DNA of 64,000 nucleotides from an archaeon. Lineage in GTDB: Archaea > Nanobdellota > Nanobdellia > Pacearchaeales > GW2011-AR1. This document shows, one piece after another, positions 13,720 through 64,000 of the stretch. Position 1 is the first letter of the stretch, and every line of letters starts with the position of its first letter. Position numbers and translations under genes: made by a program. The notes beneath the pieces were generated by a model. The model was given only the letters and a program-made list of their open reading frames with translations. It was not told where the DNA came from and did not search any database. The stretch spans positions 201,903 through 265,902 of the forward strand of contig JAYONY010000001.1 in assembly GCA_038121585.1 (NCBI GenBank), in the 5' to 3' direction.

Positions 13720-13751
13720 TGACTGACTATATCAAAGTTACTTTATATTAG

Positions 13752-14051
13752 TTACCGTGATGCTATTACCTGTAATGCCGCTACATCTAAAGAATCAACT
13801 ACGCAATCACCGTTTACGTCTGCTTCGCGATAATTAATGATTGCGCGTTCTCGTGCTAAGTATTGCGTTAGAAGTGTTGCGTCATCTAGCGTTACTTCCC
13901 CGTCTGAATTAATATCTCCATCGCCTTCTGAACAATCGGGAGATAACGCAATTCGTTCTAATCGTGTGGATGTAACATACGTGAATCCCAAAACGAGCAC
14001 TATCCCCAAAATTATAATTGCGATTTTATAGCTAAGATGGAGTTGCTTCAT
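13752..14051 (-). CDS. Small membrane-anchored dockerin-module protein
   Basis: 99 aa. TM IAIIILGIVLVLGF followed by one dockerin pair: GDINSDGEVTLDDATLLTQYL and DVNGDCVVDSLDVAALQ. Confidence 0.65.
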   Translation of the reverse strand: MKQLHLSYKIAIIILGIVLVLGFTYVTSTRLERIALSPDCSEGDGDINSDGEVTLDDATLLTQYLARERAIINYREADVNGDCVVDSLDVAALQVIASR

Positions 14052-14088
14052 GATACTAAGGGTACGACGAGGTTTTTAACAATTGTGA

Positions 14089-48287: not shown

Positions 48288-49790
48288 TTGAGTATGAAAA
48301 GAGGGGCAATTCATCTCGCATTACTTGTTATCGTGCTTGTCGGAGCAGGCATTACCTTACAAACTGTTGGTAGAGCACAAGGAGTGACCCCTCCGCCAGC
48401 TTGGATTTCACTTGATAATATCCGAGTGCTAATAAGCATTGAGCCCCACAGTGTTGACGGAAATAATAACGGGGTTGTTGATAGATGCGAAACAATGACA
48501 TATGATCCTGCAAGTGTATCAGGCCCATATGTATTGGGTGCTAGCAGTCCAAGCCACAGTATTAGCGAGGTAAGCGTTACTGCTGAAGAATTTATACCTG
48601 TTGATGATAATGAAAATGGATTTTTCGATGTGGGAGAAATCATTGATCAAGGCCAAGGAGTTGATCAAGGTGGCCAGATAATTCAAGGTAACTGGTTCCA
48701 TACATTTCTTGATATTGCTGGTGGATTAACAGGTACTGATGCAGTTAACACCCATGTAGATGATTTAGGATGGCCTGATCGATGTGATTGTATTTTAGAA
48801 GAACGCGATACTGATCCACGTAATTGTGGCGATTGTGGAATTGTTTGCCCGTTCTGGGCCCCTATTTGCGACGGCGGAGAATGTCGTGAGGCTGCTCCAG
48901 CAGAACCCGTACCCCAAGACAACGGCCCTGTATGTGGTGATCAAATTATTGAGGGTGCGGAAGTGTGTGACCCCCCAGGCCGTGGATGGGCTGGGCCCGG
49001 AGGAGACTCTAATGGGTGTCCGCCAAATCAAGTTTGTGCTGATGATTGCTCCTCTTGTGGAAATACAATCCTCTTATGTGGCGATGGAGTTGTCACGTTC
49101 CCTGAAGAATGTGAAGGACCTGGCCGTGTTGCGGGAGGAGTAAATAGATTTGGTGAATCATACCCTAATTTAAACGCATATGGAGATACGTGCCCTTTCG
49201 CTGCTTGTGGCAATGATTGTCGATGCCTACTATTACCCCCAGGAGGGTATTACGACCCTACAGGAAATCCCGGACCTGGAAATGATTGGATACCACCGCC
49301 ACAACCAGGCGTTCCATGGCCTGACCCTCCAGGGTCGCCAGGTCAGCCAGCAGGAGAGGCTGAATGTGGAGATGGTGCCTGGTCATGGGGCGAACAATGT
49401 GACCCATCAGCACAACCACCTGGAGACAATGGACATTGCGCATACTATCAAGAATGTACCCAGGATTGTGTTTGTTCAAACAGATTCCCTGCATATGAGC
49501 AAGCAGCCATTGATCCAACATTCGGAACATACCCTCCAGCACCAGCAGGTAGCAACTTAGAAGGAGAATACCTAACAGGCAACATTCCTAACTACGGATG
49601 GAACTGGCCTTCTCCTATAGAGCCCCCAATAGCCACTCCAGAATGCGGAGATGGTTTCTGGAAAACTGGAACGCCTGAAGAATGCGACGCATCAGCACCC
49701 GGAGGAACAGTGCCTTGTGGAGACGGCAATGCTTGTTTAGCAGATTGTACTTGTGAGGGAGGAGTTATCATCGGACCGCCAGGCGGATAA
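48288..49790 (+). CDS. Secreted Cys-rich protein with four CGDG..(E)ECD repeats
   Basis: 500 aa. N-terminus MSMKRGAIHLALLVIVLVGAGI. Repeats VCGDQIIEGAEVCDPPG, LCGDGVVTFPEECEGPG, ECGDGAWSWGEQCDPS and ECGDGFWKTGTPEECDAS resemble the Myxococcus-type cysteine-rich repeat. Confidence 0.7.
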   Translation: MSMKRGAIHLALLVIVLVGAGITLQTVGRAQGVTPPPAWISLDNIRVLISIEPHSVDGNNNGVVDRCETMTYDPASVSGPYVLGASSPSHSISEVSVTAEEFIPVDDNENGFFDVGEIIDQGQGVDQGGQIIQGNWFHTFLDIAGGLTGTDAVNTHVDDLGWPDRCDCILEERDTDPRNCGDCGIVCPFWAPICDGGECREAAPAEPVPQDNGPVCGDQIIEGAEVCDPPGRGWAGPGGDSNGCPPNQVCADDCSSCGNTILLCGDGVVTFPEECEGPGRVAGGVNRFGESYPNLNAYGDTCPFAACGNDCRCLLLPPGGYYDPTGNPGPGNDWIPPPQPGVPWPDPPGSPGQPAGEAECGDGAWSWGEQCDPSAQPPGDNGHCAYYQECTQDCVCSNRFPAYEQAAIDPTFGTYPPAPAGSNLEGEYLTGNIPNYGWNWPSPIEPPIATPECGDGFWKTGTPEECDASAPGGTVPCGDGNACLADCTCEGGVIIGPPGG

Positions 49791-50700: not shown

Positions 50701-51309
50701 ATGACACTTACTGATGAACAAATTGCTGAGGCTAAGAAACAATTGTCTGAGCAAATAGCACACTTGCCTGATGATCAAAAAGCTCAGGCACAGCAACAGA
50801 TTGATAGTATGAGCCCTGAGGCGATTGAAAAGATGGTTGCAGAGCAAGCGCAGGGAAATTCCCAACAAGTGTTTCGATTAATTGTACAAGGTAAAATCCC
50901 TGCGAAGGTAATTGCAGATATTGATGATGCGATTGCAGTGCTTTCTACTAAATCAATTTCTAAAGGGCACTCAGTGATAATTCCTAAAACTGCAGTTACT
51001 AAGTCTTCTGATATGCCAGCGAGTGTGTTTGAACTTGCGAAAGTGATTTCTGCGAAAGTAATTGAGGTGTTGCAAGCGCATGGTTCTGAGATTCAAACAC
51101 AATTTGCATTTGGTGAATTAGTAGTGCATGTTATTCCAGTATTTGATAAGCCAGTTTCTATTAATTCTCAACCGACTGATGCTGATGAGAAGGAGCTTGA
51201 GGAATTAGCTAAGAAGCTGTTTATTCCTGCTGCTAAAAAAGAACCTGACATAATTACCCAGCCTGAGAAGGATGAGACAGTGTTCAAATTACGTCGTAAA
51301 GTTCCTTAG
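50701..51309 (+). CDS. HIT-like protein with a degenerate histidine triad and a helical N-terminal extension
   Basis: Start at ATG 50701. GHSVIIPK and GELVVHVIPVF align to the HIT GHxLVIPK / HxHxHxIP motifs, but only one His of the triad is retained. Confidence 0.5.
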   Translation: MTLTDEQIAEAKKQLSEQIAHLPDDQKAQAQQQIDSMSPEAIEKMVAEQAQGNSQQVFRLIVQGKIPAKVIADIDDAIAVLSTKSISKGHSVIIPKTAVTKSSDMPASVFELAKVISAKVIEVLQAHGSEIQTQFAFGELVVHVIPVFDKPVSINSQPTDADEKELEELAKKLFIPAAKKEPDIITQPEKDETVFKLRRKVP

Positions 51310-52145
51310 AAGAGTGCGAAACGACCAAAAGAATACCACGACCAGATAAGTACGAATAAACTAATGAGGAATGTTGGGGTGAAGGGGATTCCTCGTTTTA
51401 TCCATACGTTCTTTTTGTGTTTGAGCAAGAATAAAATTTCTTTTTTTGTGAGCCCATGAACGCTTGGTTCAATCGTTGTTTTCCCCACTGTTACTGCTCG
51501 GTCAAGCCAGTCTCCTTCTGTTAGCTTTGTAGGTGCTACGCGCACGATCATTATTCCTCGTTCGAGCGCGCGAGCATACATGACAAGGAGTGGGAGTAAG
51601 CTAAAGAGCACTACCCAAAAACCATAGGGAAAGAGAGGTGCTCCTGATGCGAGTACAATTTCGAGTCCGAGTCCGACGAAGAACATTGCAATAAATAATT
51701 TGCGAAATGCACTCCATTCTTTCTTGAATGCGTTAGTAAATCCTTTTGTGTTGCGTGCGACGAGCACCCCACTATATACAAGAGTGTAGAGAATGCCTGC
51801 AACAAAAAAGACGAGGAGGAATGTCAGAGTGATTGTTATGAGGCTGGTTATACTCGTGAAAGGGAGCACTCCCCCGTACCCCATAAGGAGTTTTGCGTCT
51901 CCTCCCGCAAATACTCGTCCGTAATAGAAGAGGTATGCAAGTCCTACAAAAACTCCGACTCCAAGCACCCCGTACCAAAAGAAGTAAGGCACCTCATAGA
52001 CGAGTGCATAAAATCCTCGATAGGCAAGTGTGAATGCGATTAACGTGAAATTAAGCCAGTTAGCGACTTCTGTTGTGCGCATATCCTGCACTACCGCAAA
52101 AAAAGTCCAGATGGCAGCAAGTCCAAATAAAAAATAGTATTCCAC
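51306..52145 (-). CDS. A24-family prepilin/preflagellin peptidase (FlaK/PibD/EppA-like)
   Basis: 279 aa, multi-pass. FAVVQDMRTTEVANW and FAGGDAKLLMGYGGVLPF match the two catalytic Asp motifs of archaeal A24 peptidases. Confidence 0.75.
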   Translation of the reverse strand: MEYYFLFGLAAIWTFFAVVQDMRTTEVANWLNFTLIAFTLAYRGFYALVYEVPYFFWYGVLGVGVFVGLAYLFYYGRVFAGGDAKLLMGYGGVLPFTSITSLITITLTFLLVFFVAGILYTLVYSGVLVARNTKGFTNAFKKEWSAFRKLFIAMFFVGLGLEIVLASGAPLFPYGFWVVLFSLLPLLVMYARALERGIMIVRVAPTKLTEGDWLDRAVTVGKTTIEPSVHGLTKKEILFLLKHKKNVWIKRGIPFTPTFLISLFVLIWSWYSFGRFALF

Positions 52146-52211
52146 AAGTAAGCCCTCTTCTTAAGGAGTACCTAACCGAATCTTTATTAACTTTCCTGCG
52201 CAAAAAAGGGT

Positions 52212-53189
52212 ATGAAAAAAGAGGAATTAAGTAGATATTTGTATGTTGCAATCATTGCAGCACTTATTTTTCTCTCGTATCTTATCATTAAACCGTATGC
52301 AATTCCTATTATTTCAGCATTTATTCTTGCGTATTTAAGCAAACCTTTGTATGAACGATTAGCGCGTGGCATGCCTCGTAGTATTGCAGCGTTAGGAACG
52401 ATTGCGTTTGTGATTGTTATCACCTTAGTCCCTATTGCAAGTATTGTTGGCGGACTTATTAATCAGGCTACGAGCACGATTAAATCTTCAACAATGCAAG
52501 AATATGTTGATAATCTTGAAAATGTTGGCCTTGTACAACTTTTGAATTTAGATATTGAAGGATTACTTGATCAGGGACTTTCTAATTTTATTGAAATACT
52601 AACGAATGTTACAACGCACATCCCTTCGATTTTCATCGCGTTCTTCATTACGCTGTTTGGTATGTACTACTTACTTATTGATTGGGAGCGCGTTACCAAA
52701 GGACTTACTGTGTACTTGCCAGTTCGCAATAAGTCTCGTTTAGCGTCTGAAATTGCGCAAGTAAGCCGTAGTTTAGTGTATGGTACCCTTCTCATAGCTC
52801 TTATTGAGTTCGTACTGGGCATTATTGGGTTCTATCTTGCTGGTGTGAAGTACTTCTTACTACTACCCGCGCTCATTGCTATCTTTGCGTTCGTTCCAGG
52901 CCTTGGACCTATGGCTGTGTGGATTCCTACAGCAATTATTCTAGTTGCACAACAGAATTGGCCAGGAGCATTGATTATTACCGTTACAGGATTTATCTTA
53001 ACAATTTTTGTGGATAATATTCTCCGTATTAGAATCACGGGCAAGGCAGCGAGTACCCACCCACTTGTAATGCTCGTAGGTATTTTCGGTGGTATCACAC
53101 TCTTTGGAGCATTTGGATTTATTATTGGTCCTTTGCTACTCAGCTACACGATGAAAATAGTGCAAGAAGTAGCTGAAGAAATGAGATAA
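52212..53189 (+). CDS. AI-2E family transporter (PerM/UPF0118)
   Basis: 325 aa, about 8 TM segments. The FVPGLGPMAVWIP.. pattern is typical of the family. Confidence 0.7.
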   Translation: MKKEELSRYLYVAIIAALIFLSYLIIKPYAIPIISAFILAYLSKPLYERLARGMPRSIAALGTIAFVIVITLVPIASIVGGLINQATSTIKSSTMQEYVDNLENVGLVQLLNLDIEGLLDQGLSNFIEILTNVTTHIPSIFIAFFITLFGMYYLLIDWERVTKGLTVYLPVRNKSRLASEIAQVSRSLVYGTLLIALIEFVLGIIGFYLAGVKYFLLLPALIAIFAFVPGLGPMAVWIPTAIILVAQQNWPGALIITVTGFILTIFVDNILRIRITGKAASTHPLVMLVGIFGGITLFGAFGFIIGPLLLSYTMKIVQEVAEEMR

Positions 53190-53266
53190 TGCTAAAATAC
53201 TTTGTCTTAAGAATGCTCTGAGCAGGGCACCTTTGAACATTTAGGCACTGGGTACTTTGAGCAGAG

Positions 53267-53491
53267 CTACTTCTTCTTTTTCTTTGCCCCAGAACGTTTT
53301 TGTTTAGGGGTACTCCGAGCGGAGTTAGATTTCTTCTTACCTTTATTCTTAGGAGTGTGTTCCTTACCTTTAGAAGTAGTGTCCACTACGGTTGTTGCGC
53401 GGAACTTACCTCCTCGCTTATACTTGTTATGTTTGCTTTTCTTACGCTTATCATTTTTTGATTTGCGCTTTTCAGGATAGGCATAGTCCAT
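53267..53491 (-). CDS. Highly basic Lys-rich small protein
   Basis: 74 aa, about 40 percent Lys/Arg (KRKSKNDKRKKSKHNKYKRGGK...). No family recognised. Confidence 0.4.
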   Translation of the reverse strand: MDYAYPEKRKSKNDKRKKSKHNKYKRGGKFRATTVVDTTSKGKEHTPKNKGKKKSNSARSTPKQKRSGAKKKKK

Positions 53492-53521
53492 GTTGAAATA
53501 GGGAAAATAGAGTATTTAGGA

Positions 53522-54076
53522 TTATTGCAGGATGAATGCTCGTGCAAACGAGATTTCTTTTGCATCTGCAGTAAGGGTAAATCGCCCGTCACCAGTATCG
53601 TAGTACACGATGAGGACTGCTCGCTTACCTTTTTGATTACCCCCAAGTTCTATTTGAACAGGCCCACCTTTGCCTTGAATCAAGCCTGTTTTACCAATTA
53701 TACCGCCGGGAGTGCCATCAGTTGCAAGGAGATGCACAACAATAAAGCCAGGTTGTGAAAGGTCGTAAGAGTCAATCGTGAGTGCTCCATCAGTTATTGC
53801 TGAGCTTCGCATGGTTACTGCAAGATTTGACGTTTCAGGAGTCGGTTGAGATGTTGAAGTATGAGAAGAAGTGTCTCGTGAAGCAACAGTAAGCAAGAGC
53901 ATATAAAGAATTGCTACAACAACACATGCTCCGAGCACCATGAGAAGTTTGCGATCATGTGCCTGTTGTGTTGCTAAAACCTTACGTTTCACAGGAGAAC
54001 GTTTGGCACGAACAGGCGTTTTTTTCCGAGGAGCAGAAGTTTTTTTTGAGCGAGTAACTTTCTTTTTTACTGCCAT
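53522..54076 (-). CDS. Type II membrane protein with a basic N-terminus and a beta-rich ectodomain
   Basis: 184 aa. KKKVTRSKKTSAPRKKTPVRAKR, then TM LLMVLGACVVVAILYMLLLTV, then ectodomain GFIVVHLLATDGTPGGIIGKTGL. Confidence 0.5.
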   Translation of the reverse strand: MAVKKKVTRSKKTSAPRKKTPVRAKRSPVKRKVLATQQAHDRKLLMVLGACVVVAILYMLLLTVASRDTSSHTSTSQPTPETSNLAVTMRSSAITDGALTIDSYDLSQPGFIVVHLLATDGTPGGIIGKTGLIQGKGGPVQIELGGNQKGKRAVLIVYYDTGDGRFTLTADAKEISFARAFILQ

Positions 54077-54080
54077 CTAC

Positions 54081-54422
54081 CTAACAAGTGATTGTTGAAC
54101 AAGAATCTAAGCCAACATTCTTCGTCTGAAGACCCCCACAAGTATAGTTTGTTCCGCTAGCCAATCCAGTACCCGTTATGTCATCACCAAACGTGATATT
54201 TCTCTGGAGATTACAGTACGCAGTCCGGTCACCAGAAGCACAAGCTAATTGACATTTACGTACTTCTTCAGCAATATTAGAATCATTACTTGGAATAAAG
54301 TCAAAGAAGTTGCCCCATCCAACGGAGAATCCGTAAATGAGCGATACGAGAACAACAAGTGCGAGAATTACTACGACAATTGCTTGTACACTTAATCCCT
54401 GCCCTCTTTTTTCAGTTATCAT
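54081..54422 (-). CDS. Pilin-like protein (class III signal-like N-terminus, KRGQ)
   Basis: 113 aa. MITEKRGQGLSVQAIVVVILALVVLVSLIYGF. Cys-containing C-terminal domain. Confidence 0.65.
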   Translation of the reverse strand: MITEKRGQGLSVQAIVVVILALVVLVSLIYGFSVGWGNFFDFIPSNDSNIAEEVRKCQLACASGDRTAYCNLQRNITFGDDITGTGLASGTNYTCGGLQTKNVGLDSCSTITC

Positions 54423-54466
54423 TATCCCTTATAGAGCGTTCCTAGATTTATAAAGGTTATGCGTTC

Positions 54467-54778
54467 TTACCTTCTACGATAATGGTTTGGAAAAAATCGC
54501 CGTGCGAAAAACCGGAAGAATATTCCAACTATAGCTATGAATAGGAATACAGCTAAGAGTTGAAATCCAACATTCAAGGTAAAGAGATATCTAAACGTAA
54601 TAAGCGTTACAACGAGGGTTACAACCATTGCAATTTTTCTGTTGCGATAAAAAAGCGGTACTCGAGTTAAAGTCGTAAAAGTAAGAATAAAGACTAATAA
54701 ACAGATTGCGATTATGACTGCATCAGGATTACGATACAAGTCTGCTATGGAAGCACCTACTTGGTAAAAAATAATCAT
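54467..54778 (-). CDS. Small multi-pass membrane protein in the pilin-like cluster
   Basis: 103 aa with 3 hydrophobic helices. 4-nt overlap with the upstream gene. No [KR]G motif. Confidence 0.5.
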   Translation of the reverse strand: MIIFYQVGASIADLYRNPDAVIIAICLLVFILTFTTLTRVPLFYRNRKIAMVVTLVVTLITFRYLFTLNVGFQLLAVFLFIAIVGIFFRFFARRFFPNHYRRR

Positions 54779-55464
54779 TTCTTAAATGCCTCCTCTACAT
54801 GCGCTAGTCCTTTTTCTAATCCTTCCACGCGAATGTGGAATATGTCTCGTTCCATTTTTTCTTTGAGTTTTGCAGCTGCTTCCGAGTGCTTTGCAAGTAT
54901 ACACGCATTCCAATACAAGAATCTTCGTATAAAGATTATTGCTGCTGCCCAAAGCACGATAAAGAGTATGAATGCAATCCAACCCCACCAGCCATCACGG
55001 AAGAAGATGAGTTTAAACAAGAGTTCTGCGAGCATGGCAAAAACCCCTAAGTGTGCTGATATTACGACCATCACAAGCGCTATCCCAAATGAAGGTAATG
55101 CTCCAAGGGTTGACATGTCAGCTAAAACTCTCCCAAAAACAAAGAAGAAGAAAATCCAGATAAGGACAACAAAGAACAGCGTGAGCGATAGAGAATACGG
55201 CTGGCCAAAGAGTACGACAAATACAGGACTCAAAAACGTAAAGAATGCATTAATTGCTTGCACGGCTTTGTTACGTGCTAAGATTTCACGCCATTTATCA
55301 CCGAGAAAATCCCATCGTTGTTCTTCAAGCGACTCGCGTATTGTTTCCGTAGCATTATTAAGTTGTTCAACATTGTCGCCAATGTCACCCGGAATGCCTG
55401 ACTGTCCAAGCACAAAAGGAAGTATCAATACTACAATAAAGAATATTCCTACACCTCGTCGCAT
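54775..55464 (-). CDS. Multi-pass membrane protein with a pilin-like N-terminus (paralogue group)
   Basis: 229 aa. MRRGVGIFFIVVLILPFVLG, an ectodomain, 3-4 TM segments, and a charged C-terminal tail. Confidence 0.55.
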   Translation of the reverse strand: MRRGVGIFFIVVLILPFVLGQSGIPGDIGDNVEQLNNATETIRESLEEQRWDFLGDKWREILARNKAVQAINAFFTFLSPVFVVLFGQPYSLSLTLFFVVLIWIFFFFVFGRVLADMSTLGALPSFGIALVMVVISAHLGVFAMLAELLFKLIFFRDGWWGWIAFILFIVLWAAAIIFIRRFLYWNACILAKHSEAAAKLKEKMERDIFHIRVEGLEKGLAHVEEAFKK

Positions 55465-55494
55465 AGTTGCATATCAAAAACTGAATTTATATAG

Positions 55495-55923
55495 TTATTT
55501 GCCAGCGAGTGCATCACCAACAGTTTCTATTCCCTTAATTGCTCCAGCAACTTTCTTGCCGCCTGCTTCTGAGGCAATCGCTGTTTGATCAGCTTTCATG
55601 AATGCTCGTCGACGCATAATCCATTGCCCAAGTCCCTTAACACCCCAGTTAACCGCAAAGAATGCGACAAATGCTGCGAGCATGCCCGCAAAAGCAGCTA
55701 AAGAACCGAGCCAAACAAACAGGCTTGTGAATACAACAAGGATGTACACAGTCACTTTCAAGTTAGCAGCGATTATAGCTACAGCAAATGAAACACCAAA
55801 TGAAGTCCACCCATCAAACGTTGAGAACGAACGCAAAATACTCGTAAACGTCATAAGTATCAAAAAGAAAATTCCTATGAGAATAACTTGAGCAATAAGA
55901 TCATTTGTTCCCAGTTCAAACAA
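55495..55923 (-). CDS. Multi-pass membrane protein, paralogue of 56250..56888
   Basis: 142 aa. The C-terminal 100 aa align with the 212 aa paralogue (AAFVAFFAVNWGVKGLGQW.. AGGKK..). Confidence 0.55.
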   Translation of the reverse strand: MFELGTNDLIAQVILIGIFFLILMTFTSILRSFSTFDGWTSFGVSFAVAIIAANLKVTVYILVVFTSLFVWLGSLAAFAGMLAAFVAFFAVNWGVKGLGQWIMRRRAFMKADQTAIASEAGGKKVAGAIKGIETVGDALAGK

Positions 55924-55950
55924 ATACTTAGGTACATTAACAAAAACATA

Positions 55951-56136
55951 TTACAACAAAGAAAAACGAGAATCTTCACTAAACGGCTGGGTTGTCATCG
56001 TGAAATCAGGCTTAAAATACGTGACTAAAAAGATAAAGCCGCCAATAACCAGGAGCAACGCAACTATCGCAAGAATAGCAGTACCAATAGATTTAACATC
56101 CTCTTCAGTATGACTCTCACCTCGTTTATTCATCAT
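55951..56136 (-). CDS. Small pilin-like protein
   Basis: 61 aa. MMNKRGESHTEEDVKSIGTAILAIVALLLVIGGFIFLV. Confidence 0.5.
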   Translation of the reverse strand: MMNKRGESHTEEDVKSIGTAILAIVALLLVIGGFIFLVTYFKPDFTMTTQPFSEDSRFSLL

Positions 56137-56249
56137 GCAGGAAAGAGTACTCGGCGATATAAAAACATTACTGCTCTAAATTTCAAACAAGAATTAAAAA
56201 ATAGAAAAAAATAAAAAAATAAAAAATAAGGTTTTAAAAATAACAAAAA

Positions 56250-56888
56250 TTACGCTTTTTCGAGTCCTTCGCCGGCTTCATTCAGGCCTTCTACCGAACC
56301 CTTCGTCTTTTTACCACCAGCTTTACGCTTAGCAGCTATAAGGTCTGCTTCACGCATTGTTCGTCGTTCTTCAAGCCAAGGACTGAGAGATTTGACCCCC
56401 CAGTTAACTGCAAAGAATGCGACAAACGCTGCGAACATTCCGATGAACACTGCAGCAGATCCCGCAAACACAAACAGGCCTACACTCAAAGCAATCATTG
56501 TTACAATACCATTAAGGTTTGCAGCAATGATACCAAGCAAGATGGCGACAATCAACGAAACAGGTCTTGAGAATGTTCCAAAGGTCCATAGCACGTCAAA
56601 AAACGTGACAGTAATTAGTAACCAAACCGCAACAACCACTATCTGTGCACTCATAGGACTAACACCTATATTTGCAAGAAAGGCAGGTACATCACCGAAG
56701 ATATACCCGAGCCAACTAAATGCTGGGTTGTCGGAAAATGCTTCTGTAGCAGTATCTACGCCATCAGAAACGTTTGAAAACCAACCGCTTTGGACAAGGA
56801 ACCATCCAAGACTAAATAGTCCGAAGATAACTACAAGTACAATAACTGTAGCTGTAGTTTTGTTCAATTTGCCTCTTTTATTTATCAT
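56250..56888 (-). CDS. Multi-pass membrane protein with a pilin-like N-terminus
   Basis: 212 aa. MINKRGKLNKTTATVIVLVVIFGLFSLGWF. Four further TM segments. C-terminal AAKRKAGGKKTKGSVEGLNEAGEGLEKA. Confidence 0.6.
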   Translation of the reverse strand: MINKRGKLNKTTATVIVLVVIFGLFSLGWFLVQSGWFSNVSDGVDTATEAFSDNPAFSWLGYIFGDVPAFLANIGVSPMSAQIVVVAVWLLITVTFFDVLWTFGTFSRPVSLIVAILLGIIAANLNGIVTMIALSVGLFVFAGSAAVFIGMFAAFVAFFAVNWGVKSLSPWLEERRTMREADLIAAKRKAGGKKTKGSVEGLNEAGEGLEKA

Positions 56889-56962
56889 GACCCAAGTTAC
56901 GCGTTATACTATTTAAATATTTCTTTAATGTAACACGTGCTACCGAGGGATACATGTAGCAA

Positions 56963-57421
56963 TTATAGTGAAACACGCGCCTGAAAAATCCGTTCTTGCG
57001 ATGCAACATGCGCTCCGACACGCGTTGTAACGTCTACAGGGTCAATAGTTACTAAATACCCGTCCCCTGAAGAGGTTACTTCGTACTGACCATTAGCAAC
57101 ACGTGTAAAGAACTGCGAGTCTGAAATGCCTTGGTCTCGTTCTGCTACGATTCGCTCAAATGCTTCTTCAAATGCAGCGATAAAATCATCAGCTCCTGTT
57201 GCATTTTGAAGGGCGTAATCAGCTGAGGTTTGAAGTACTGCGGCCAAGTATTCTTGCTCAAATTGGTGTTGTGAAGCAAATTGGTCAAATGCTTCTTGTT
57301 CTACTACGAGTGATCCTTGAAATGAAACCATTGCAAACAGCATTGCTACTGCGAGCGCGAGCGCTACTATAAAGAAAAGTGCAAACATGAGTTCTTGCCC
57401 TCGTTTGTTCATGTCGGACAC
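56963..57421 (-). CDS. Pilin-like protein (KRGQ)
   Basis: 152 aa. MSDMNKRGQELMFALFFIVALALAVAMLFAMV. Confidence 0.65.
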   Translation of the reverse strand: MSDMNKRGQELMFALFFIVALALAVAMLFAMVSFQGSLVVEQEAFDQFASQHQFEQEYLAAVLQTSADYALQNATGADDFIAAFEEAFERIVAERDQGISDSQFFTRVANGQYEVTSSGDGYLVTIDPVDVTTRVGAHVASQERIFQARVSL

Positions 57422-58059
57422 ACCCCATAATAATAGTAAATGTACGCGTTCTTCTCAGGTACGTGCAATGACCGTACAGGTAATTCCCGACCGATAGTTT
57501 GTAATTGTGATGAACTCAATTGCTCAGCAACCCCTTCTTGTAATCGGTACGCATGATACAAAGGGATATGTCCTGATTGCACACTTTGGTTCGGAGCACC
57601 ACTAAGCCGGTGCATTTCACTTGCAAAGTCTGTACCAGGGCCGATACCAATAGTGAATGCTGTGCAAATTGGCTCCTTACCATTATACGATGCCGCGAGT
57701 GCTTCTTGCAATGCTCGTTGCCCATCTTCCATAAACAAGGCTATCTCGTCAATCTTTGATTCATCCATCATAGAAAATCCTGCGCGAAACGCTTGATCAT
57801 AATCCAAACTTTCTATTCCAAACTCTACAAAAGTATACAGCGCCCCTTGAATGGCAAATGGCATGAATAATATTCGTTGCCCACTCCCGAACGAAAACTC
57901 ATTGCGATACCCTTCAGCCTTAATCAAATCAGAGGGTTTGTCTACAAACACTCCGGTAATAATTAAAAACAAGGTCATGAGTACGAGCACTAAGAGATAC
58001 GTTGGCATTGCAGAGATGTATGAACCAACAACCCCTCGTTTAGTGTTAAAAGTCAGCAT
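57409..58059 (-). CDS. Pilin-like protein
   Basis: 216 aa. MLTFNTKRGVVGSYISAMPTYLLVLVLMTLFLIITG. Overlaps both neighbours by 13-14 nt. Confidence 0.6.
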   Translation of the reverse strand: MLTFNTKRGVVGSYISAMPTYLLVLVLMTLFLIITGVFVDKPSDLIKAEGYRNEFSFGSGQRILFMPFAIQGALYTFVEFGIESLDYDQAFRAGFSMMDESKIDEIALFMEDGQRALQEALAASYNGKEPICTAFTIGIGPGTDFASEMHRLSGAPNQSVQSGHIPLYHAYRLQEGVAEQLSSSQLQTIGRELPVRSLHVPEKNAYIYYYYGVCPT

Positions 58060-58501
58060 ATACTTTTCGCGGCGGGTTATTTGTTGCTACAAATAATCGG
58101 TACGTTTCCCCTCCTTTTACAAACGATCCCGTAGCACAGCTCGGTGCGGTCGGATTATCAAAATAACATTGGGTTTCATAATCTCGTTTTCCCCAAAAAG
58201 CTTCGGTTTCCCCGACTTTATCTATTAAAATAAGATAATTTCCAAGCGCTTCCTCATGAATAGCGCATTGTTCAAACATAACTTCCTTAAATGATTGCGA
58301 AACGATGTCCTGGTTTACCGTGAGTAAACAGTGATACACTTGTGAGTATAACGCATCACTCTCAACTTGTTTTGCACTATACCCCCCTGCTAGAAACAAA
58401 AACTTCGCTCCGACTATCGGACCGAGCACAGTAATCGTAAATAAGAGGAGCATTGGGAGTGAAAACGTATTCCGACCGATTGCTTGTCCGCGCCGATTCA
58501 T
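58046..58501 (-). CDS. Pilin-like protein (RRGQ)
   Basis: 151 aa. MNRRGQAIGRNTFSLPMLLLFTITVLGPIVGA. Confidence 0.6.
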   Translation of the reverse strand: MNRRGQAIGRNTFSLPMLLLFTITVLGPIVGAKFLFLAGGYSAKQVESDALYSQVYHCLLTVNQDIVSQSFKEVMFEQCAIHEEALGNYLILIDKVGETEAFWGKRDYETQCYFDNPTAPSCATGSFVKGGETYRLFVATNNPPRKVYADF

Positions 58502-58923
58502 GTTACTTGTCGCTCCAGAGTTTCCTCAATTTCGAAACAGTACCGGTTCGTTGTTTCCCCACCTGAAGGAAAGACGATGCGACCTTCAACTACATTCACA
58601 TCATTAAAAAATGAAGCGACCGTCCCACTCCCACTATTCATTGTTACGCGTACTTGATTCGCTACATTATCAATCCGTATTATTTGATTTACAGGTATCC
58701 CATTCGTAATTGCAATTTCTGAACCGCGAGTTACATCAAGGCAAATTGATGCGCCAGGATGTGCATAATTTATGGCCCGTGCTAGTTCTTGCGAATACAT
58801 TGCTTCATACACCCCGCCTGCATTGCGCAAGTCCGCAATATACACACTGCCAATCGCAAGAATAGCTAGCACTAGCAAAATGTATACTACGTTTCCTTTA
58901 ACAACATCATATGGACTACTCAT
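58498..58923 (-). CDS. Pilin-like protein (VKG variant)
   Basis: 141 aa. MSSPYDVVKGNVVYILLVLAILAIGSVYI. Confidence 0.55.
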   Translation of the reverse strand: MSSPYDVVKGNVVYILLVLAILAIGSVYIADLRNAGGVYEAMYSQELARAINYAHPGASICLDVTRGSEIAITNGIPVNQIIRIDNVANQVRVTMNSGSGTVASFFNDVNVVEGRIVFPSGGETTNRYCFEIEETLERQVT

Positions 58924-58925
58924 AG

Positions 58926-59573
58926 TTATTCAACGTCACACGGACCCATTTGACCAGTAACCCTTCCCGAAGTAAATCTGAGATTGGTACATAACTCTGG
59001 AAAAGTAGGATCATACAACGCTATTGAATCATCCCCTTTTGTAATCGCAAGTTCAAAGAGGGCATCTTTAAGCACAATTTCACCCATTGCACCATATTCA
59101 TAAAGATCATGCTCTTGTAACGTCCCAACTATTCGTGTATAAGAAAGAATTGGGCCAAGCTCGAGAGTAGCAACATCAAAGGACCTACATATCCCTTCAT
59201 TCTGGCACGTTGACGCTCCCTTGCACACACAAATACAACTATCAAAAAAACATTTATCTGGCTTACTTCCAACACCTACCCATGCAGAAACGGCAGAATC
59301 TACCCCGGATTGTTGGTTAAGACTCCATCCGTAAAGAGCCCAACCTTCCAGTCCACGAAAGGCAAATGTATTAGATTGCCCTTCTTCAAGAGTATTGATT
59401 TTTCCTTCCAGACTATCCATTAGCTTAATCGCATTGCGCGCTTCATTCGTCACAAACACATCATACAATTTTACTCCTGCAAAAACGAGGATGAGCATTG
59501 CTACAACTGCAATAATAATACCAAGTGTTTCATTTAAGAGCATTCCTTCCCCTCGTTTTACAAAGACTCCCAT
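58926..59573 (-). CDS. Pilin-like protein, Cys-rich ectodomain
   Basis: 215 aa. MGVFVKRGEGMLLNETLGIIIAVVAMLILVFAGV. CFFDSCICVCKGASTCQNEGIC segment. Confidence 0.6.
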   Translation of the reverse strand: MGVFVKRGEGMLLNETLGIIIAVVAMLILVFAGVKLYDVFVTNEARNAIKLMDSLEGKINTLEEGQSNTFAFRGLEGWALYGWSLNQQSGVDSAVSAWVGVGSKPDKCFFDSCICVCKGASTCQNEGICRSFDVATLELGPILSYTRIVGTLQEHDLYEYGAMGEIVLKDALFELAITKGDDSIALYDPTFPELCTNLRFTSGRVTGQMGPCDVE

Positions 59574-60611
59574 CTATAAGTTCCCCTGAATGCCTCCACC
59601 GCAAAGTGCATTCACATTTGATACAGTATACGGTACTGCTTGCACGGTTGAACATCCTGCTTTCGCTTCTTCTGTTGCAGTACTCGTAAACCCACCGCAA
59701 TACCCTGCAGCAGCGGATTGACCAAGATATGCATTGTGCGTTGCATACACTGCCCCTCCTCCAACTACAAGCACCGCTCCCGTTAACGCGTATGGGTTAG
59801 AAACAATTGCACCTGCAACTTTAGCGCTACCAGGGAGCATGAATGCAGTGCCCCCTACTGCTGCAACCCCCAACCCATAATTTTGTAATGCAGTACTATA
59901 ATCAACTGACTTAATTTGATTAAATACAAATGCAACTTGACGCGCAGTTCCACGATACGACAAGTCCCCATCAAGCTTATCTCCAGAATAATTTTGTAAG
60001 GTAACACCTGGATAATTTTGAAATTGCCGATCAGTAAATAATTCAAGATAAGTTAATGATGACTCAGGAGGTTTTGTAGTTGCAAGGTACGCATCAAACG
60101 CAGGACCAATTTCAGCATCAAGCGTTTCATTAACACTCCTGCCTAAAGCAACTCGTGAGCAAATAACACAGGTTGGTGCTTCTAACGAACTAATGCCAAA
60201 ACTAGTGTAGGCTTTACCAAAAATATCTAGTTTTCCTTCACCCATCATCTTCCAACAATCAAACATTTTTTTCGCTGATTCTTCAACGATGGTTTGTCGT
60301 TGTTCTGCAAGACTCCCAGTTAATCGAATAACTTGCACATCTTCCTCGCCAGCAAATTGTGGGCAATCATCACGATCCCCCGTTGGTGTCAAGCAGATTT
60401 TTTCTACGGTGCACTGCAACGGTATTGCTTGTTGCGCAGCATCTGCTACGGTTGCGCGCGTAATGATTGATGCTTCACATAAGTCTCGTTCTGTCTGCCC
60501 TTGATCATCAAATACATCAATAACAAAGAAGAGTAATACTGCAAATCCTGCTAAGGCCAAGATAATAGTGGTGACCATGGTCATAACGCTTGCAATCCCC
60601 TTTTTTGACAT
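59574..60611 (-). CDS. Large pilin-like protein (345 aa)
   Basis: Start moved from 60725 to ATG 60611 (MSKKGIASVMTMVTTIILALAGFAVLLFFVI). TTATAAAG promoter-like element about 25 nt upstream. Gly/Ala-rich C-terminus. Confidence 0.6.
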   Translation of the reverse strand: MSKKGIASVMTMVTTIILALAGFAVLLFFVIDVFDDQGQTERDLCEASIITRATVADAAQQAIPLQCTVEKICLTPTGDRDDCPQFAGEEDVQVIRLTGSLAEQRQTIVEESAKKMFDCWKMMGEGKLDIFGKAYTSFGISSLEAPTCVICSRVALGRSVNETLDAEIGPAFDAYLATTKPPESSLTYLELFTDRQFQNYPGVTLQNYSGDKLDGDLSYRGTARQVAFVFNQIKSVDYSTALQNYGLGVAAVGGTAFMLPGSAKVAGAIVSNPYALTGAVLVVGGGAVYATHNAYLGQSAAAGYCGGFTSTATEEAKAGCSTVQAVPYTVSNVNALCGGGIQGNL

Positions 60612-60658
60612 GCTCACTAATCTGCTTAAATCTTTATAAGTAAATCGCTGAATAATGA

Positions 60659-60769
60659 TCACACCAAAAGCCGTCGTAAAAGAAACGTTACGGCAAAAAG
60701 AGCTGCAACAAGAAGTATACTCCATAACACCGCACTGAGCGTGCCTTCAATTACCCCTCGTTTTTTCAT
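60659..60769 (-). CDS. Minimal pilin-like micro-protein (36 aa)
   Basis: Not in the track. MKKRGVIEGTLSAVLWSILLVAALFAVTFLLRRLLV. Its ATG overlaps the stop of the 515 aa gene (ATGA at 60766-60769). Confidence 0.5.
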   Translation of the reverse strand: MKKRGVIEGTLSAVLWSILLVAALFAVTFLLRRLLV

Positions 60770-62313
60770 GGCAATACCTCTGACATATCGCTTAATAAAT
60801 GCCCGTTTAGAGTTTCAAAATGAGAGATAAGAGATTCAAAGTGAGCCTGATATTCTACAGGAACATCTGATTCAGGGTTGAACTGTATAACCCCGTTAGC
60901 AAGCGCTCCCGCAACACCTCGAACTTCTAAATAATTATACCCTCCAACAGTTCCCTCAAAAGTCCCCCATTGTAAGAATGAAACTCCTGCCACAGGTGCA
61001 CCCACTATCTGAATAGGCAAGTATTCTCCCTGATAAGCTAGCCGTGAGGCAGTAACGCTTTCAGAAGAATACTCTGATCCAAGATTAAGATACGTATATC
61101 CCTCTAAAGGGTTTGGTGGACTAAATGCTTTGTTATATTCTAAGAGGATTGCTTCCCTAACGGGAATATACCCTTCAAACCCTGTAATTTTTCCAATAGA
61201 GTTTACAGGCAGAGAGACTTCATTTGAAACTGAATCAACAGTATTAGGGTGAATGATAATAGTCGCTGAGAGCCCTGTATACCCTTTCGTCATCATTCCA
61301 TTAAATGCTTTAAGGATTGAGGTAAGGCCAGCATACATATTTCGCCAAGAACTTGCAACTTCAGCCTCTAATGCTTCATTCGTTAACAGAGGTCGTTTCA
61401 ACACTTGACTTACAGGGACATTTTCATTATTCGAAGCAGGGCCTGAATAATACCATCCTTGCTCCCCATCAACAATAGTCCAACGAATACCTGTTAGCAC
61501 ACCATCACTGTCAAAATACCGTAAGCGTATCATCGCATCATTTACCCAGTTACTACGATCACGAATTTCAGGAGCACAGTTTTGATACGGCTCAGGATTA
61601 GTTGCAAGTTTATCTAAATCAACAAACAAGAACTTTCCTTGTTTTTCTACCGAAAACGGTTGCGCTGGATTGAGTAATCGAATATATTTTTCACAAGGAT
61701 GACCCTTAAGTATTTGGTCGCGCCATGCTATAAGTTCATCTTTGATTGAAGCGAGATCTGTAAGGGCAGCGTTTATTTGATCCTCACTACCAGCACTGCG
61801 CGCGGAAGCTGAATCATCAAAACGATTATCAGTTACACGCAACCATAAGTTGAGAGGGGTAAACGGCTCCCAAACATACGGCGGTTTAACAGAATATACT
61901 ATGCGCAGATGAGAAAGATAGCTAGTACCTACAGAGTTATCAATAAACGAAACTTCAGCCCCTTTGAGCCCATCAGTGTAAAAAAGATTACTCCCGTTTC
62001 GCTCACCAGTCCAAAACGCATGAAATGCTTCTTTGGTTGCGGGCATGGGCACGGTTGAACCAAGTAATTCAAATGTTTCTTCACGCAGTATCCAATCTCG
62101 TCCATCGTACGCGTACACTTCCCCATCTTCTAAATTAAACCCTACAATACGCACCCCTTCAATATCGAGTTGTTCGTTTCGTTCAAATCCAGGTATGATG
62201 TCTGCAAGCGTATCGGCCCGCATAATGATGAGTGCTGCAGCCACGAGCACTACAAGACCAAGAATTATTAAAATAATATAATTTAGTGAGAGGAGCATAC
62301 CGCGTGATTTCAT
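60766..62313 (-). CDS. Large pilin-like protein (515 aa)
   Basis: MKSRGMLLSLNYIILIILGLVVLVAAALII. ATGA overlap with the upstream 50 aa gene. No family recognised for the mature part. Confidence 0.65.
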   Translation of the reverse strand: MKSRGMLLSLNYIILIILGLVVLVAAALIIMRADTLADIIPGFERNEQLDIEGVRIVGFNLEDGEVYAYDGRDWILREETFELLGSTVPMPATKEAFHAFWTGERNGSNLFYTDGLKGAEVSFIDNSVGTSYLSHLRIVYSVKPPYVWEPFTPLNLWLRVTDNRFDDSASARSAGSEDQINAALTDLASIKDELIAWRDQILKGHPCEKYIRLLNPAQPFSVEKQGKFLFVDLDKLATNPEPYQNCAPEIRDRSNWVNDAMIRLRYFDSDGVLTGIRWTIVDGEQGWYYSGPASNNENVPVSQVLKRPLLTNEALEAEVASSWRNMYAGLTSILKAFNGMMTKGYTGLSATIIIHPNTVDSVSNEVSLPVNSIGKITGFEGYIPVREAILLEYNKAFSPPNPLEGYTYLNLGSEYSSESVTASRLAYQGEYLPIQIVGAPVAGVSFLQWGTFEGTVGGYNYLEVRGVAGALANGVIQFNPESDVPVEYQAHFESLISHFETLNGHLLSDMSEVLP

Positions 62314-62462
62314 CTACCAAACCGTAGCTTATCAAGTAAAAACTCAATAGCGTTACTCCCCTTATCACTGAGCGACATGGTAAGTATCAGCCCGAATGCA
62401 AGTACGAGCACCCCAATAATTATCCAAATGAGTGCTGAAACTGCAATTCCTCGTTTTCCCAT
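62310..62462 (-). CDS. Minimal pilin-like protein (50 aa), first gene of the cluster
   Basis: The track ORF extends to 62603. Internal ATG 62462 (MGKRGIAVSALIWIIIGVLVLAFGLILTM..) sits 26 nt from a TATA element and avoids overlap with the divergent gene. Confidence 0.55.
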   Translation of the reverse strand: MGKRGIAVSALIWIIIGVLVLAFGLILTMSLSDKGSNAIEFLLDKLRFGR

Positions 62463-62484
62463 ACAGTGCTCAGTTGTTCCAGAA

Positions 62485-62500
62485 TTATAAATGTTTATAA
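62485..62500. promoter_or_regulatory. Back-to-back TATA boxes of a divergent promoter
   Basis: In TTATAAATGTTTATAA, each strand reads TTTATAA. The left box is centred 26 nt from ATG 62462 (minus strand). The right box faces the platform gene. Confidence 0.5.
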
Positions 62501-62544
62501 CGCACAACCACGTCTTCTTCCCATGATAAAGAGTGTGAGAGACT

Positions 62545-64000
62545 GTGGCCTCTAGAGACGATATTCTCAAGAAGTACGGTGCGAGAATTGAGTCGCAATT
62601 CAAAAACGGTGGACAGCAAGGTACCCCTGCGAGCTACTCTGCTGAGTACGAACAATTTGTGAATGAGGATATTCCCGAAACGTCACGGTATGCGAGGTGG
62701 GCGAATACATTAGGTAATCTTATCAAGATTAATGTGTCTGAGAAGGACAGGGTTAAATTACAAAAGCATCTTTCTGCTGGCCACATTAATGTGACGCCGT
62801 CCCAAGCAGTGACTCTTGCGCTTGTAGCTTTTCTTGTTACATTTTTTGGCACTGCATTAATTACAGTGGCGTTTTACCTCATTAATGAATCTATTCAATT
62901 CCTATTCATGTTTCTAGGATTTATGGCGAGCGTGTTTGTATTTTATTACACCTACTCAATGCCTGCGCGTTTAGCTAAGATGTGGCGACTTAAAGCTTCT
63001 TCACAGATGGTTCCTGCAATCCTCTATATTGTGGTGTACATGAAACACACGTCTAATCTTGAGCGTGCGATTGGATTTGCTGCTGACCATCTTGACGCTC
63101 CGCTCGGGATGGATTTCAAGCGAATTTTTTACGAGGTCCAAGTTGGTAAGTACGCTTCAATTAAAGAATCACTTGATAAATATTTAGAATCCTGGCAAGA
63201 TGACGCTCCTGAGTTTGTTGAAGCTATGCACTTAATTGAGTCTTCCTTGCTTGAACCGTCTGGTCCGAGAAGAATTCAAACACTTGAGAAATCACTCCAG
63301 GTTAGTCTTGATGGGGTCTATGAAAAAATGCTTGAATTCTCTCGTAGTATTCGATCTCCCTTAACGAACTTGTACATGTTAGGCATTATTCTCCCTACAT
63401 TAGGTCTTGCCTTACTCCCGCTCGCTTCTACATTACTCAATGGCGCTCTTGCGTGGTATCATGTGTTTGTTATTTTCAATTTGCTCATTCCGTTCATTGT
63501 GTTTTACATGACGTCTGAGGTATTACTCAAGCGCCCAGGGGGGCATGGTGAAAGTGAAGCGATAGAACAAAATCCTGACTATTGGCGTTTTACATCTAAG
63601 ACCCCCTGGATTATGGCAACAATTATTGCCTTGCCATTTATCATTATTGGCACCTTGCCGTTCCTCCTCCAAATAGAGTTTGTTACACAAACGTTAGGGT
63701 TGCAAAGTGATTATACATTTGCGGAAATTGGATTAACACAGTTTGCTCCTGAAACGCAAATTTTTAATTTTAGAGAAGTTTCTGCTAACAAAACGGTTGG
63801 TCCGTTCGGACCGATTGCAGTACTACTGAGTTTATTCATTCCGTTAGGTGTCGGTCTCTTTTTCACCGTTGCGTACTCGCAGAAAACGAAGGTACTTATC
63901 AAAAGTAGGAATCAGACTAAGACGTTAGAGCAAGAATTTGCAAATTCCCTGTTCCAATTAGGGAGCAGGTTAGGTGATGGAACGCCTGCTGAAGCTGCTT
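62545..64000 (+). CDS. FlaJ/TadC-type (T2SS-F family) polytopic platform protein, partial
   Basis: The frame is open from 62539 to the window end and is absent from the track. GTG 62545 is the first candidate start, so the start is uncertain. Hand translation: ..SQMVPAILYIVVYMKHTSNLERAIGFAADHLDAPLGMDFKRIFYEVQVGKYASIKESL.. and ..LEQEFANSLFQLGSRLGDGTPAEAA, two T2SS-F-like repeats separated by TM helices. Confidence 0.7.
   Translation, partial: MASRDDILKKYGARIESQFKNGGQQGTPASYSAEYEQFVNEDIPETSRYARWANTLGNLIKINVSEKDRVKLQKHLSAGHINVTPSQAVTLALVAFLVTFFGTALITVAFYLINESIQFLFMFLGFMASVFVFYYTYSMPARLAKMWRLKASSQMVPAILYIVVYMKHTSNLERAIGFAADHLDAPLGMDFKRIFYEVQVGKYASIKESLDKYLESWQDDAPEFVEAMHLIESSLLEPSGPRRIQTLEKSLQVSLDGVYEKMLEFSRSIRSPLTNLYMLGIILPTLGLALLPLASTLLNGALAWYHVFVIFNLLIPFIVFYMTSEVLLKRPGGHGESEAIEQNPDYWRFTSKTPWIMATIIALPFIIIGTLPFLLQIEFVTQTLGLQSDYTFAEIGLTQFAPETQIFNFREVSANKTVGPFGPIAVLLSLFIPLGVGLFFTVAYSQKTKVLIKSRNQTKTLEQEFANSLFQLGSRLGDGTPAEAA

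Follow-up and report, generated by a model that had tools for sequence, protein, structure and literature searches.

A probable type IV filament substrate operon in Pacearchaeota- and Woesearchaeota-type DPANN archaea

Introduction

Type IV pilus loci of a CpaF/TadC type are conserved across the Pacearchaeota, Woesearchaeota and Nanoarchaeota (cluster-2 DPANN; Hamm et al. 2024, Nat Commun, PMC11291902). Here we analyse a 64,000-nucleotide stretch of the genome of an archaeon of the Pacearchaeales (contig JAYONY010000001.1 of assembly GCA_038121585.1, positions 201,903 to 265,902), hereafter called the window, in which a run of minus-strand genes at 54081–62462 lies divergent from a gene for a putative platform protein. 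The region is probably an operon for the substrates (‘pilins’) of a machine of the type IV filament (TFF) kind, which is conserved throughout DPANN archaea of the Pacearchaeota/Woesearchaeota type.

In a preliminary description made from the sequence alone, the organism was tentatively taken for an episymbiotic archaeon, and the locus for an uncharacterised apparatus of the type IV filament kind. The organism does belong to the DPANN archaea. The filament assignment is well supported, with an ATPase nearby, a leader motif that is kept in orthologues and an A24 peptidase 2 kb away. The machine is indeed without experimental characterisation, but type IV pilus loci in these lineages had already been noticed by Hamm et al. 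in 2024, so that its kind is a recognised one; the gain lies in a definition of the pilin operon and of its cleavage motif. The locus is probably one of the types reported in that study, to judge by description only. The lineages overlap, a CpaF-like ATPase and a TadC-like platform protein are found in both, and coiled-coil genes stand beside the ATPase; this last feature is what suggests the identity, since here two proteins of 102 and 304 aa, with weak coiled-coil-family matches only, flank the ATPase gene and are kept in 57–61 of 83 related loci. By contrast, the portion of the published text available to us deals with core and coiled-coil genes, gives filament genes (‘FlaF and PilA’) for one locus only, and does not describe a class III operon of 9–13 genes, mini-pilins or a motif.

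A broader framework has come from a 2026 preprint on the TFF superfamily, in which system 1 (Epd-like), reported from some DPANN archaea, is characterised by many pilins, two platform genes and the lack of a globular domain in the major pilin. ‘FlaIJK’ or ‘type IV pili’ are regular entries in papers on DPANN genomes, while type IV pilus components are declared ‘missing in DPANN genomes’ by one groundwater study. Statements of the latter kind are probably explained by annotation, as the genes of the present locus other than those for the ATPase and peptidase are labelled ‘hypothetical’. The matter is of some interest because the Pacearchaeota and Woesearchaeota are abundant, uncultivated, ultra-small and presumed to depend on other cells. 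Definition of the operon provides targets for proteomics, cryo-electron tomography and structure prediction, namely the M-N-[KR]-[KR]-G motif, a 50-aa mini-pilin, a 10-cysteine protein and a hypervariable large member, and it would improve the automatic annotation of thousands of dark-matter genes in a very large uncultivated lineage.

Gene layout and the N-terminal motif

An open reading frame (ORF) listing over 52000–64000 reproduced a set of ORFs of 36 to 515 aa, all on the minus strand, as had been described. The cluster is a tightly coupled operon of 14 genes once split ORFs are merged, numbered here from g01, beside the platform gene, to g14. Five of the junctions are ATGA overlaps and one is a 14-nt overlap; the remainder are short gaps. 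The products begin with M-x(0-8)-[KR][KR]G, after which comes a hydrophobic helix. This motif was sought at all 677 ATG starts in the window with at least 35 codons (pattern ^M.{0,8}[KR][KR]G), with the second criterion that a 15-mer within 40 residues should have a mean Kyte-Doolittle hydropathy of at least 2. Thirteen starts qualified, twelve of them inside 54081–62462 on the minus strand and one at 48294–49790. Two of the twelve are alternative starts of a single gene, leaving 11 genes with the strict motif, to which two variants (KSRG in g02 and VVKG in g06) may be added to give 13 motif-bearing products. The concentration of the motif in the cluster is far beyond chance. The GC content, at 40–43%, is unremarkable.

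The preliminary description had arrived at 15 genes, 13 of them motif-bearing. The second figure stands; the first falls to 14, because an ORF of 61 aa and one of 142 aa are a single gene, g11, in a sister contig described below. Of the two products then listed as lacking the motif, only g13 (54467–54778) does so, the other (55495–55923) being part of the motif-bearing g11. The VKG form was thought to be the sole departure from [KR][KR]G, but MKSRG at 60766–62313 is a second. The start with MSKKG preferred for the ORF at 59574–60725 was well chosen: the internal ATG at 60611 is the best start, and homologues begin there.

Conservation of the motif and of the locus

Species representatives in GTDB were scanned with a profile of the platform protein. 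At least 576 species-level genomes contain a relative, and 80 loci, all from DPANN metagenome-assembled genomes (MAGs), were kept for comparison. In the 41 species-level loci with long flanks, the strand corresponding to the cluster, divergent from the platform gene, carries a mean of 6.2 strict-motif ORFs (range 0–9), against 0.12 on the opposite strand. On the side downstream of the platform gene the mean is 0.8, an excess due to four loci in which the cluster is rearranged. An ATPase gene lies within the flank in 53 of the 58 loci with enough downstream sequence, and in 42 of 56 an A24 peptidase gene is found at the distal end of the cluster and on its strand. The preliminary description had proposed a comparison of synteny in related MAGs; gene order and gene lengths prove to be colinear across species. 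A lineage-specific insertion is seen in the closest related species (locus L003, 7046–8788), where a 580-aa PD40/beta-propeller protein with a lipoprotein-like N-terminus, another lineage-specific cargo, interrupts the pilin operon.

When 255 N-termini were aligned at the Gly, the consensus was M-N(46%)-K/R-K/R-G, with a hydrophobic core at about +6 to +25 and with E (20%), Q (20%) or D (14%) at +1. Gln at +1, which had been likened to EppA-type pilins, is found in only three of the 13 cluster proteins and in 20% of orthologues, where E and D are about as common. To avoid circularity, orthologues were searched for with the mature domains only (residue 41 to the end) and their upstream sequence was then inspected. 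The [KR]G leader is kept in 56 of 62 orthologues of g04, in 28 of 44 of g05, 26 of 49 of g06, 13 of 18 of g07, 8 of 9 of g09 and all five of g14. Ala is an alternative tolerated at position −1 of class III cleavage sites, and it is this residue that replaces the Gly in several of the exceptions among g04 and g07 orthologues (KKKA↓D, NKRA↓S, NRKA↓A; here and below the arrow marks the predicted cleavage site). Loss of the motif in orthologues had been named as an outcome that would speak against a filament locus; instead, it is retained in orthologues from dozens of species.

ATPase, peptidase and platform protein

A 39-kb Logan contig (L001), found by exact-protein look-up, overlaps the window over its final 13.2 kb and extends past its end. 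The absence of a secretion ATPase near the platform gene had been regarded as a second possible objection, and the sequence beyond 64000 was therefore examined. There, outside the window and some 2.5 kb beyond the platform gene (L001 2765–5050), lies a gene for a 761-aa ATPase of the GspE/FlaI/TadA family, matching Pfam T2SSE. Its best matches in the PDB are to Archaeoglobus GspE (afGspE, E-value 2e-26), CpaF (3e-25) and FlaI (3e-15), and among NCBIfam models it matches the TadA family (2.7e-38) and FlaI (8e-35), all far below the equivalog cut-offs. The N-terminal ~290 residues are without family assignment.

The peptidase matches Pfam Peptidase_A24 (E-value 3.4e-10, 40.7 bits against a cut-off of 26.5) and, weakly, FlaK. 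Catalytic-type Asp motifs are present (D21 and AGGD83AK), and the gene lies 2 kb from the pilin cluster on the same strand. Here the two are separated at 52212–54076 by a plus-strand gene for an AI-2E family transporter (E-value 2e-48) and a gene for a DUF7282 membrane protein; no homologue of the latter occurs among the 83 related loci.

The platform gene is cut by the window end and is complete in L001, where it ends at window-equivalent position 64713 and encodes 722 aa. MAGs of the Pacearchaeota, Woesearchaeota and Nanoarchaeota contain more than 2600 relatives at 57–69% identity; a few of these have been named ‘Flp pilus assembly protein TadB’ by the Joint Genome Institute, and one has a precomputed PF00482 match. 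Pfam T2SSF matches five of 31 platform homologues, with a best E-value of 1.9e-5. An AlphaFold2 model (mean predicted local distance difference test score, pLDDT, 78.4; predicted template modelling score 0.75) is all-helical with some nine hydrophobic segments. In Foldseek, the only high-probability matches of the model are to cytoplasmic domains of EpsF/OutF, protein F of the type II secretion system (T2SS) (probability 0.98–0.99, TM-score 0.64–0.75, root mean square deviation 2.8–4.7 Å), with E-values above 1 owing to the length of the query; the PilC chain of a type IVa pilus machine model follows at 0.69. We regard the protein as a divergent member of the FlaJ/TadBC type, which its predicted topology and its genomic context fit, although its score lies below that for formal Pfam membership.

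The core pilin-like proteins

From an all-against-all phmmer comparison of four loci and the succession of gene lengths at 38, a colinear core of nine genes can be defined: g01 (~50 aa), g02 (167–537 aa), g03 (~36–46 aa) and g04 (~340–360 aa), followed by genes of ~200, ~145, ~155, ~190 and ~150 aa and often by a last one of ~110–200 aa (g14). Coordinates are given in Table 1.

Table 1. Features of the pilin-like operon and its flanks (window coordinates).
Feature	Position	Strand	Description	Basis or remark
A24 peptidase	51306..52145	-	prepilin/preflagellin-type aspartyl peptidase, 279 aa	Pfam Peptidase_A24
Basic protein	53267..53491	-	74 aa, extremely basic (K/R-rich), between pilin cluster and peptidase	homologue on same strand in 46/83 loci; no family match
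g14	54081..54422	-	113-aa, 6-Cys class III-like protein, MITEKRG↓QGLSVQAIVVV...	5/5 orthologous matches keep motif
g13	54467..54778	-	103-aa three-helix membrane protein without motif	hydropathy
g12	54775..55464	-	229-aa multi-pass membrane protein, MRRGVG...	hydropathy
g11	55495..56136	-	213-aa paralogue of g10, MMNKRG..., interrupted by TAA in this assembly	intact in L001
g10	56250..56888	-	212-aa multi-pass membrane protein, class III-like leader MINKRG...	hydropathy; in L036 only
g09	56963..57412	-	149-aa class III-like protein, MNKRG↓QELMFALFF...	orthologues; hhalign to g07
g08	57409..58059	-	216-aa class III-like protein, MLTFNTKRG↓V...	orthologue in L004
g07	58046..58501	-	151-aa class III-like protein, MNRRG↓Q...	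phmmer among loci; mature-domain search
g06	58498..58923	-	141-aa pilin-like protein, degenerate leader MSSPYDVVKG here	orthologues in 49 loci
g05	58926..59573	-	215-aa class III-like protein, MGVFVKRG↓EG..., 8 Cys	orthologues in 44 loci; N-terminal module in common with g04
g04	59574..60611	-	345-aa, 10-Cys class III-like protein, best-conserved cluster member	family alignment; AlphaFold2 model
g03	60659..60769	-	36-aa mini-protein, MKKRG↓VIEGTLSAVLW..., leader and single hydrophobic helix	called as gene in L002
g02	60766..62313	-	515-aa class III-like protein, MKSRG..., hypervariable large member, candidate adhesin/tip protein	positional orthologues
g01	62310..62462	-	50-aa mini-pilin candidate, MGKRG↓IAVSAL...LRFGR, first operon gene, divergent from platform gene	orthologues in 46 related species
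Palindrome	62486–62501, within 62463..62544		AT-rich, TTATAAATGTTTATAA; candidate back-to-back archaeal TATA boxes	read from sequence
Platform protein	62545..64000	+	FlaJ/TadB-TadC-like, cut by window end	complete (722 aa) in L001

The g01 family, with 47–57 aa (~51), occupies the first position beside the platform gene in 46 related species and has the consensus M-x-KRG-x-x-W-[DE]-x-L-x-P-W-I-I...K-G...A...K-N...R-F-G, in which a leader precedes one hydrophobic helix and a tail of ~20 residues. An acidic residue is found 2–6 positions past the Gly in 38 of 47 sequences of the family, though not in the copy in the window. At about half of the related loci, the position of g03 ahead of the ~345-aa gene is taken by a motif ORF of 35–46 aa. 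Between these two small genes lies g02, whose positional orthologues (167–537 aa) have only the N-terminal ~70–100 aa in common; a word-indexed search of 5.8 billion proteins for homologues of g02 returned only g02 itself.

At the other extreme stands g04, with 2917 family representatives at an E-value of 1e-3 or below in a 50%-identity library, all without names. In an alignment of 52 sequences with 29% mean column identity, G5 is at least 90% conserved and ten Cys are invariant, the latter arguing for extracellular domains. The AlphaFold2 model (pLDDT 78.3) has an N-terminal helix (residues 6–54), then an alpha/beta domain, with a Gly/Ala-rich hydrophobic segment of low confidence at residues 250–300. 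Among the smaller families, those g06 orthologues which have a leader typically begin with a canonical MN[KR][KR]G, unlike the degenerate copy in the window, and some g07 orthologues have A instead of G at −1 (NRKA, NKKA, NKRA). A look-up of cluster members for protein names or accessions returned none.

Profile-profile comparison with hhalign finds likeness mainly in the first 35–55 residues, at 90% for g04–g05 and 88% for g07–g09 (N-terminal ~50 residues), with weaker full-length signals for g05–g07 (68%) and g06–g09 (73%). Likeness confined mainly to the N-terminal module is the pattern expected of type IV pilins. The operon and the platform gene diverge from an intergenic region of 82 nt (62463–62544), within which the AT-rich palindrome TTATAAATGTTTATAA may represent a pair of back-to-back archaeal TATA boxes and so a promoter for both.

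The proposed machine and alternative explanations

All four core parts of a TFF machine are seen in synteny: a T2SSE-family ATPase, an A24 peptidase, class III-type substrates and a putative platform protein, the last with a score below the Pfam T2SSF cut-off. A working model can be outlined. The 13 motif-bearing products would be inserted into the membrane with their short basic leaders in the cytoplasm, and the A24 peptidase would cut them behind the Gly of M-N-[KR]-[KR]-G, a residue sometimes replaced by Ala in relatives. By homology, the 722-aa platform protein and the 761-aa ATPase would extract the processed subunits and polymerise them via their common N-terminal hydrophobic helices. 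The likeliest bulk subunit is g01, the mature form of which would have ~45 residues and, like Flp and EpdE, no globular domain. The products of g03–g09 and g14 might then be minor or initiating pilins, and the hypervariable g02 an exposed, fast-evolving adhesin. The most plausible output is an adhesive pilus of the Tad/Epd-like kind; that a DPANN cell would use it for contact with a host or partner is a reasonable guess, no more. It is tempting to go further and to propose a Tad/Epd-like filament of ~45-residue g01 subunits with a conserved cap complex of about eight minor pilins. The hypervariable member of that complex, g02, for which no homologue could be detected beyond this genome, would set the specificity for partner or host, and the same A24 peptidase would also process the multi-pass g10–g12. 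This extended version is tentative and rather unlikely to hold in full. If true, the multi-pass A24 substrates would form a class not described for class III signal peptidases, and a lineage said by one groundwater study to have no pili would possess a concrete, testable host-contact organelle.

A number of observations weigh against the assignment to a TFF machine. Pfam and NCBIfam scans of every cluster protein returned no pilin, archaellin or class III signal model at E-values of 0.1–1 or below. For g04, neither fold comparison (AlphaFold2 and Foldseek) nor profile search gave a PDB match, so that a pilin fold cannot be confirmed by similarity. Three of the motif-bearers (g10, g11 and g12) are multi-pass membrane proteins. 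Many members have a polar stretch of 5–17 residues between the leader and the hydrophobic core, which is atypical for canonical class III signals, and the leader is absent from 16 of 44 g05 and 23 of 49 g06 orthologues. The platform protein reaches only 18.2 bits against the Pfam T2SSF cut-off of 25.2 (E-value 0.0026), over residues 170–292 only; hhalign of its N-terminal against its C-terminal half finds no repeat, and a second T2SSF domain is likewise undetected. The ‘T2SS-F-like repeats’ that had been ascribed to it are therefore not demonstrable, the support for the family consisting of this one sub-threshold match and one fold match; a profile of its homologues found nothing among PDB sequences. 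Finally, in this genome a gene for an M1-family aminopeptidase lies between the platform and ATPase genes.

Several of these points would be accommodated if the N-termini were ordinary uncleaved signal anchors or Sec signals, with basic residues placed before Gly by the positive-inside rule, on unrelated proteins which merely adjoin pilus core genes. The want of a pilin family match, the polar spacers and the leaderless orthologues would all fit, and the N-terminus of g12 (MRRGVGIFFIVVLILPFVLG↓QSG) could equally be an ordinary Sec signal. Against this, families of 29% mean identity allow only G or A at position −1 and only K or R at positions −2 and −3, the motif shows a 50-fold strand- and location-specific enrichment beside the platform gene in 41 species, an A24 peptidase is co-located and the families have a homologous N-terminal module in common; such an explanation is hardly credible. 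A class III leader could also be a general A24-dependent route by which diverse surface proteins are anchored or assembled, not in a long adhesive pilus but in a pseudopilus or envelope structure that is short and cell-associated, on the lines of the Sulfolobus bindosome, in which large non-pilin proteins with class III-type leaders rely on a TFF-type ATPase and platform. Large proteins with class III-like N-termini are indeed encoded elsewhere in the window (19416–21287, 11746–13719 and 48294–49790), cluster members range up to 515 aa and include multi-pass membrane proteins, and the 2026 TFF preprint describes substrate-binding proteins with class III signals as widespread in archaea. Surface display of this kind is nevertheless decidedly improbable, as the conserved core consists of small proteins (36–216 aa), with two mini-proteins amounting to hardly more than a pilin helix, Pfam scans detect no substrate-binding-protein or enzyme domain in any cluster member, and the ATPase scores far lower against the bindosome BasE model than against the TadA and FlaI models.

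The same set of genes might instead assemble a pseudopilus, either of the Com type, importing DNA or nucleotides, or of the T2SS type, exporting proteins, for a biosynthetically poor cell. Com and T2SS machines are laid out with one small major subunit, several minor pilins, an ATPase, a platform and a peptidase, which is also the layout proposed here. Pilin-like genes have furthermore been tied to DNA uptake in papers on ultra-small prokaryotes (PMC9938205). However, the annotated neighbourhoods of four loci (L001 and L003–L005) contain no ComEC, ComEA or DprA-like domains and no secretin, and there is nothing specific in favour of such a role, which we consider very unlikely.

Relationship to known filament systems

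Among described TFF systems, there are several parallels with the Epd pilus of Methanococcus maripaludis and system 1. Both have a large many-pilin cluster in one unit, of 11 genes in the case of Epd, with a dedicated A24 peptidase; thus the view that archaeal pilus loci have few pilins, on which the unusual size of the present cluster had been argued, was mistaken. The system 1 major pilin without a globular domain has its architectural match in g01 (50 aa) and g03 (36 aa), and Q at +1 is found in part of the substrates. Differences are also apparent. System 1 has two platform genes, whereas a single one, for 722 aa, is present here, and each related locus inspected likewise has one alone; at +1, E or D occurs as often as Q; the pilin families match no named model; and the ATPase, at 761 aa, has an N-terminal region of ~290 residues of no assigned family. 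With the bacterial Tad/Flp pilus, which derives from system 1, the locus has in common an ATPase that matches TadA/CpaF slightly better than FlaI.

The archaellum has homologous components (FlaI, FlaJ and FlaK) and class III signal peptides, but it was rejected as an identification since no archaellin (FlaB), FlaF, FlaG or KaiC-like FlaH is detected by Pfam or NCBIfam in the cluster or its annotated flanks, a finding that concerns this locus only. As for the Sulfolobus bindosome, the likeness lies in large proteins with class III-type leaders, and the differences in the lack of substrate-binding domains and in the low BasE score noted above.

The accessory block and the split gene g11

The hydropathy of g10, g11, g12 and g13 confirms the earlier remark that several members are multi-pass membrane proteins. 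These four form a block which, among the 83 related loci, recurs only in L036, there on the other strand; g10 and g11 are paralogous (phmmer E-value 2e-45). The members of the block cannot make up a set of filament subunits, and the block itself is an accessory insertion of rare occurrence. It accounts in part for the label ‘mega-cluster’ given to the locus in the preliminary description, which overstates a core of ~9 genes.

Within this block, g11 is split in the present assembly. The window and L001 differ at nine positions in 13,235 nt (99.9% identity), and seven of the nine fall in the 64 nt from 55895 to 55958, in every case with A or T in the window against C or G in L001. One of these creates a TAA at 55951–55953, which separates the 61-aa ORF (55951–56136) from the 142-aa ORF (55495–55923); the two share a frame, and in L001 they are a single intact gene of 213 aa. 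The mismatch cluster has the look of a local artefact of sequencing or assembly, or else of a recent pseudogenisation. Recoding of the TAA, or an alternative genetic code, was rejected since L001 has a sense codon at this point and the differences form a local cluster of transversions. A diversity-generating retroelement is not favoured either, as the changes occur on both strands and yield a stop, although no repeat search was run.

Neighbouring genes

The M1-family aminopeptidase (~840 aa) is encoded at L001 5047–7569 (window-equivalent about 64745–67267) and at 12908–15418 in L003; its insertion is confined to this genome and that closest relative and is not seen at other related loci. Beside the ATPase gene (L001 1–2037; L003 17970–20880) are encoded the 102-aa coiled-coil-like protein, a protein of ~300 aa (304 aa here) with a coiled-coil-like C-terminal half, and two to three paralogous membrane proteins of ~165–190 aa, these neighbours being kept in 49–61 of 83 loci. 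They may be further machine parts, or they may correspond to what Hamm et al. 2024 call ‘CCP’ genes; phmmer finds no link between g10 or g11 and the three paralogous membrane proteins. On the far side of the operon, membership of the 74-aa basic protein in the system is uncertain.

Class III-like proteins elsewhere in the window

The sole strict-motif match outside the cluster, on the plus strand at 48294–49790, is a 498-aa protein beginning MKRG↓AIHLALLVIVLVGAG, with a Cys-rich C-terminus and no Pfam match. A second cluster of surface proteins lies on the minus strand at 11746–21287. It includes a 623-aa protein with a GTG start (19416–21287, VAKRG↓LATGFIILALV), ATGA-coupled to a 1776-aa protein with an ordinary Sec-type signal and no Pfam match, as well as a 99-aa dockerin-domain protein (E-value 5.5e-11) and a 657-aa protein (11746–13719, METRG↓MSGIVVV) with a weak dockerin match. 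The proteins of this second cluster may be additional class III-type substrates or adhesins.

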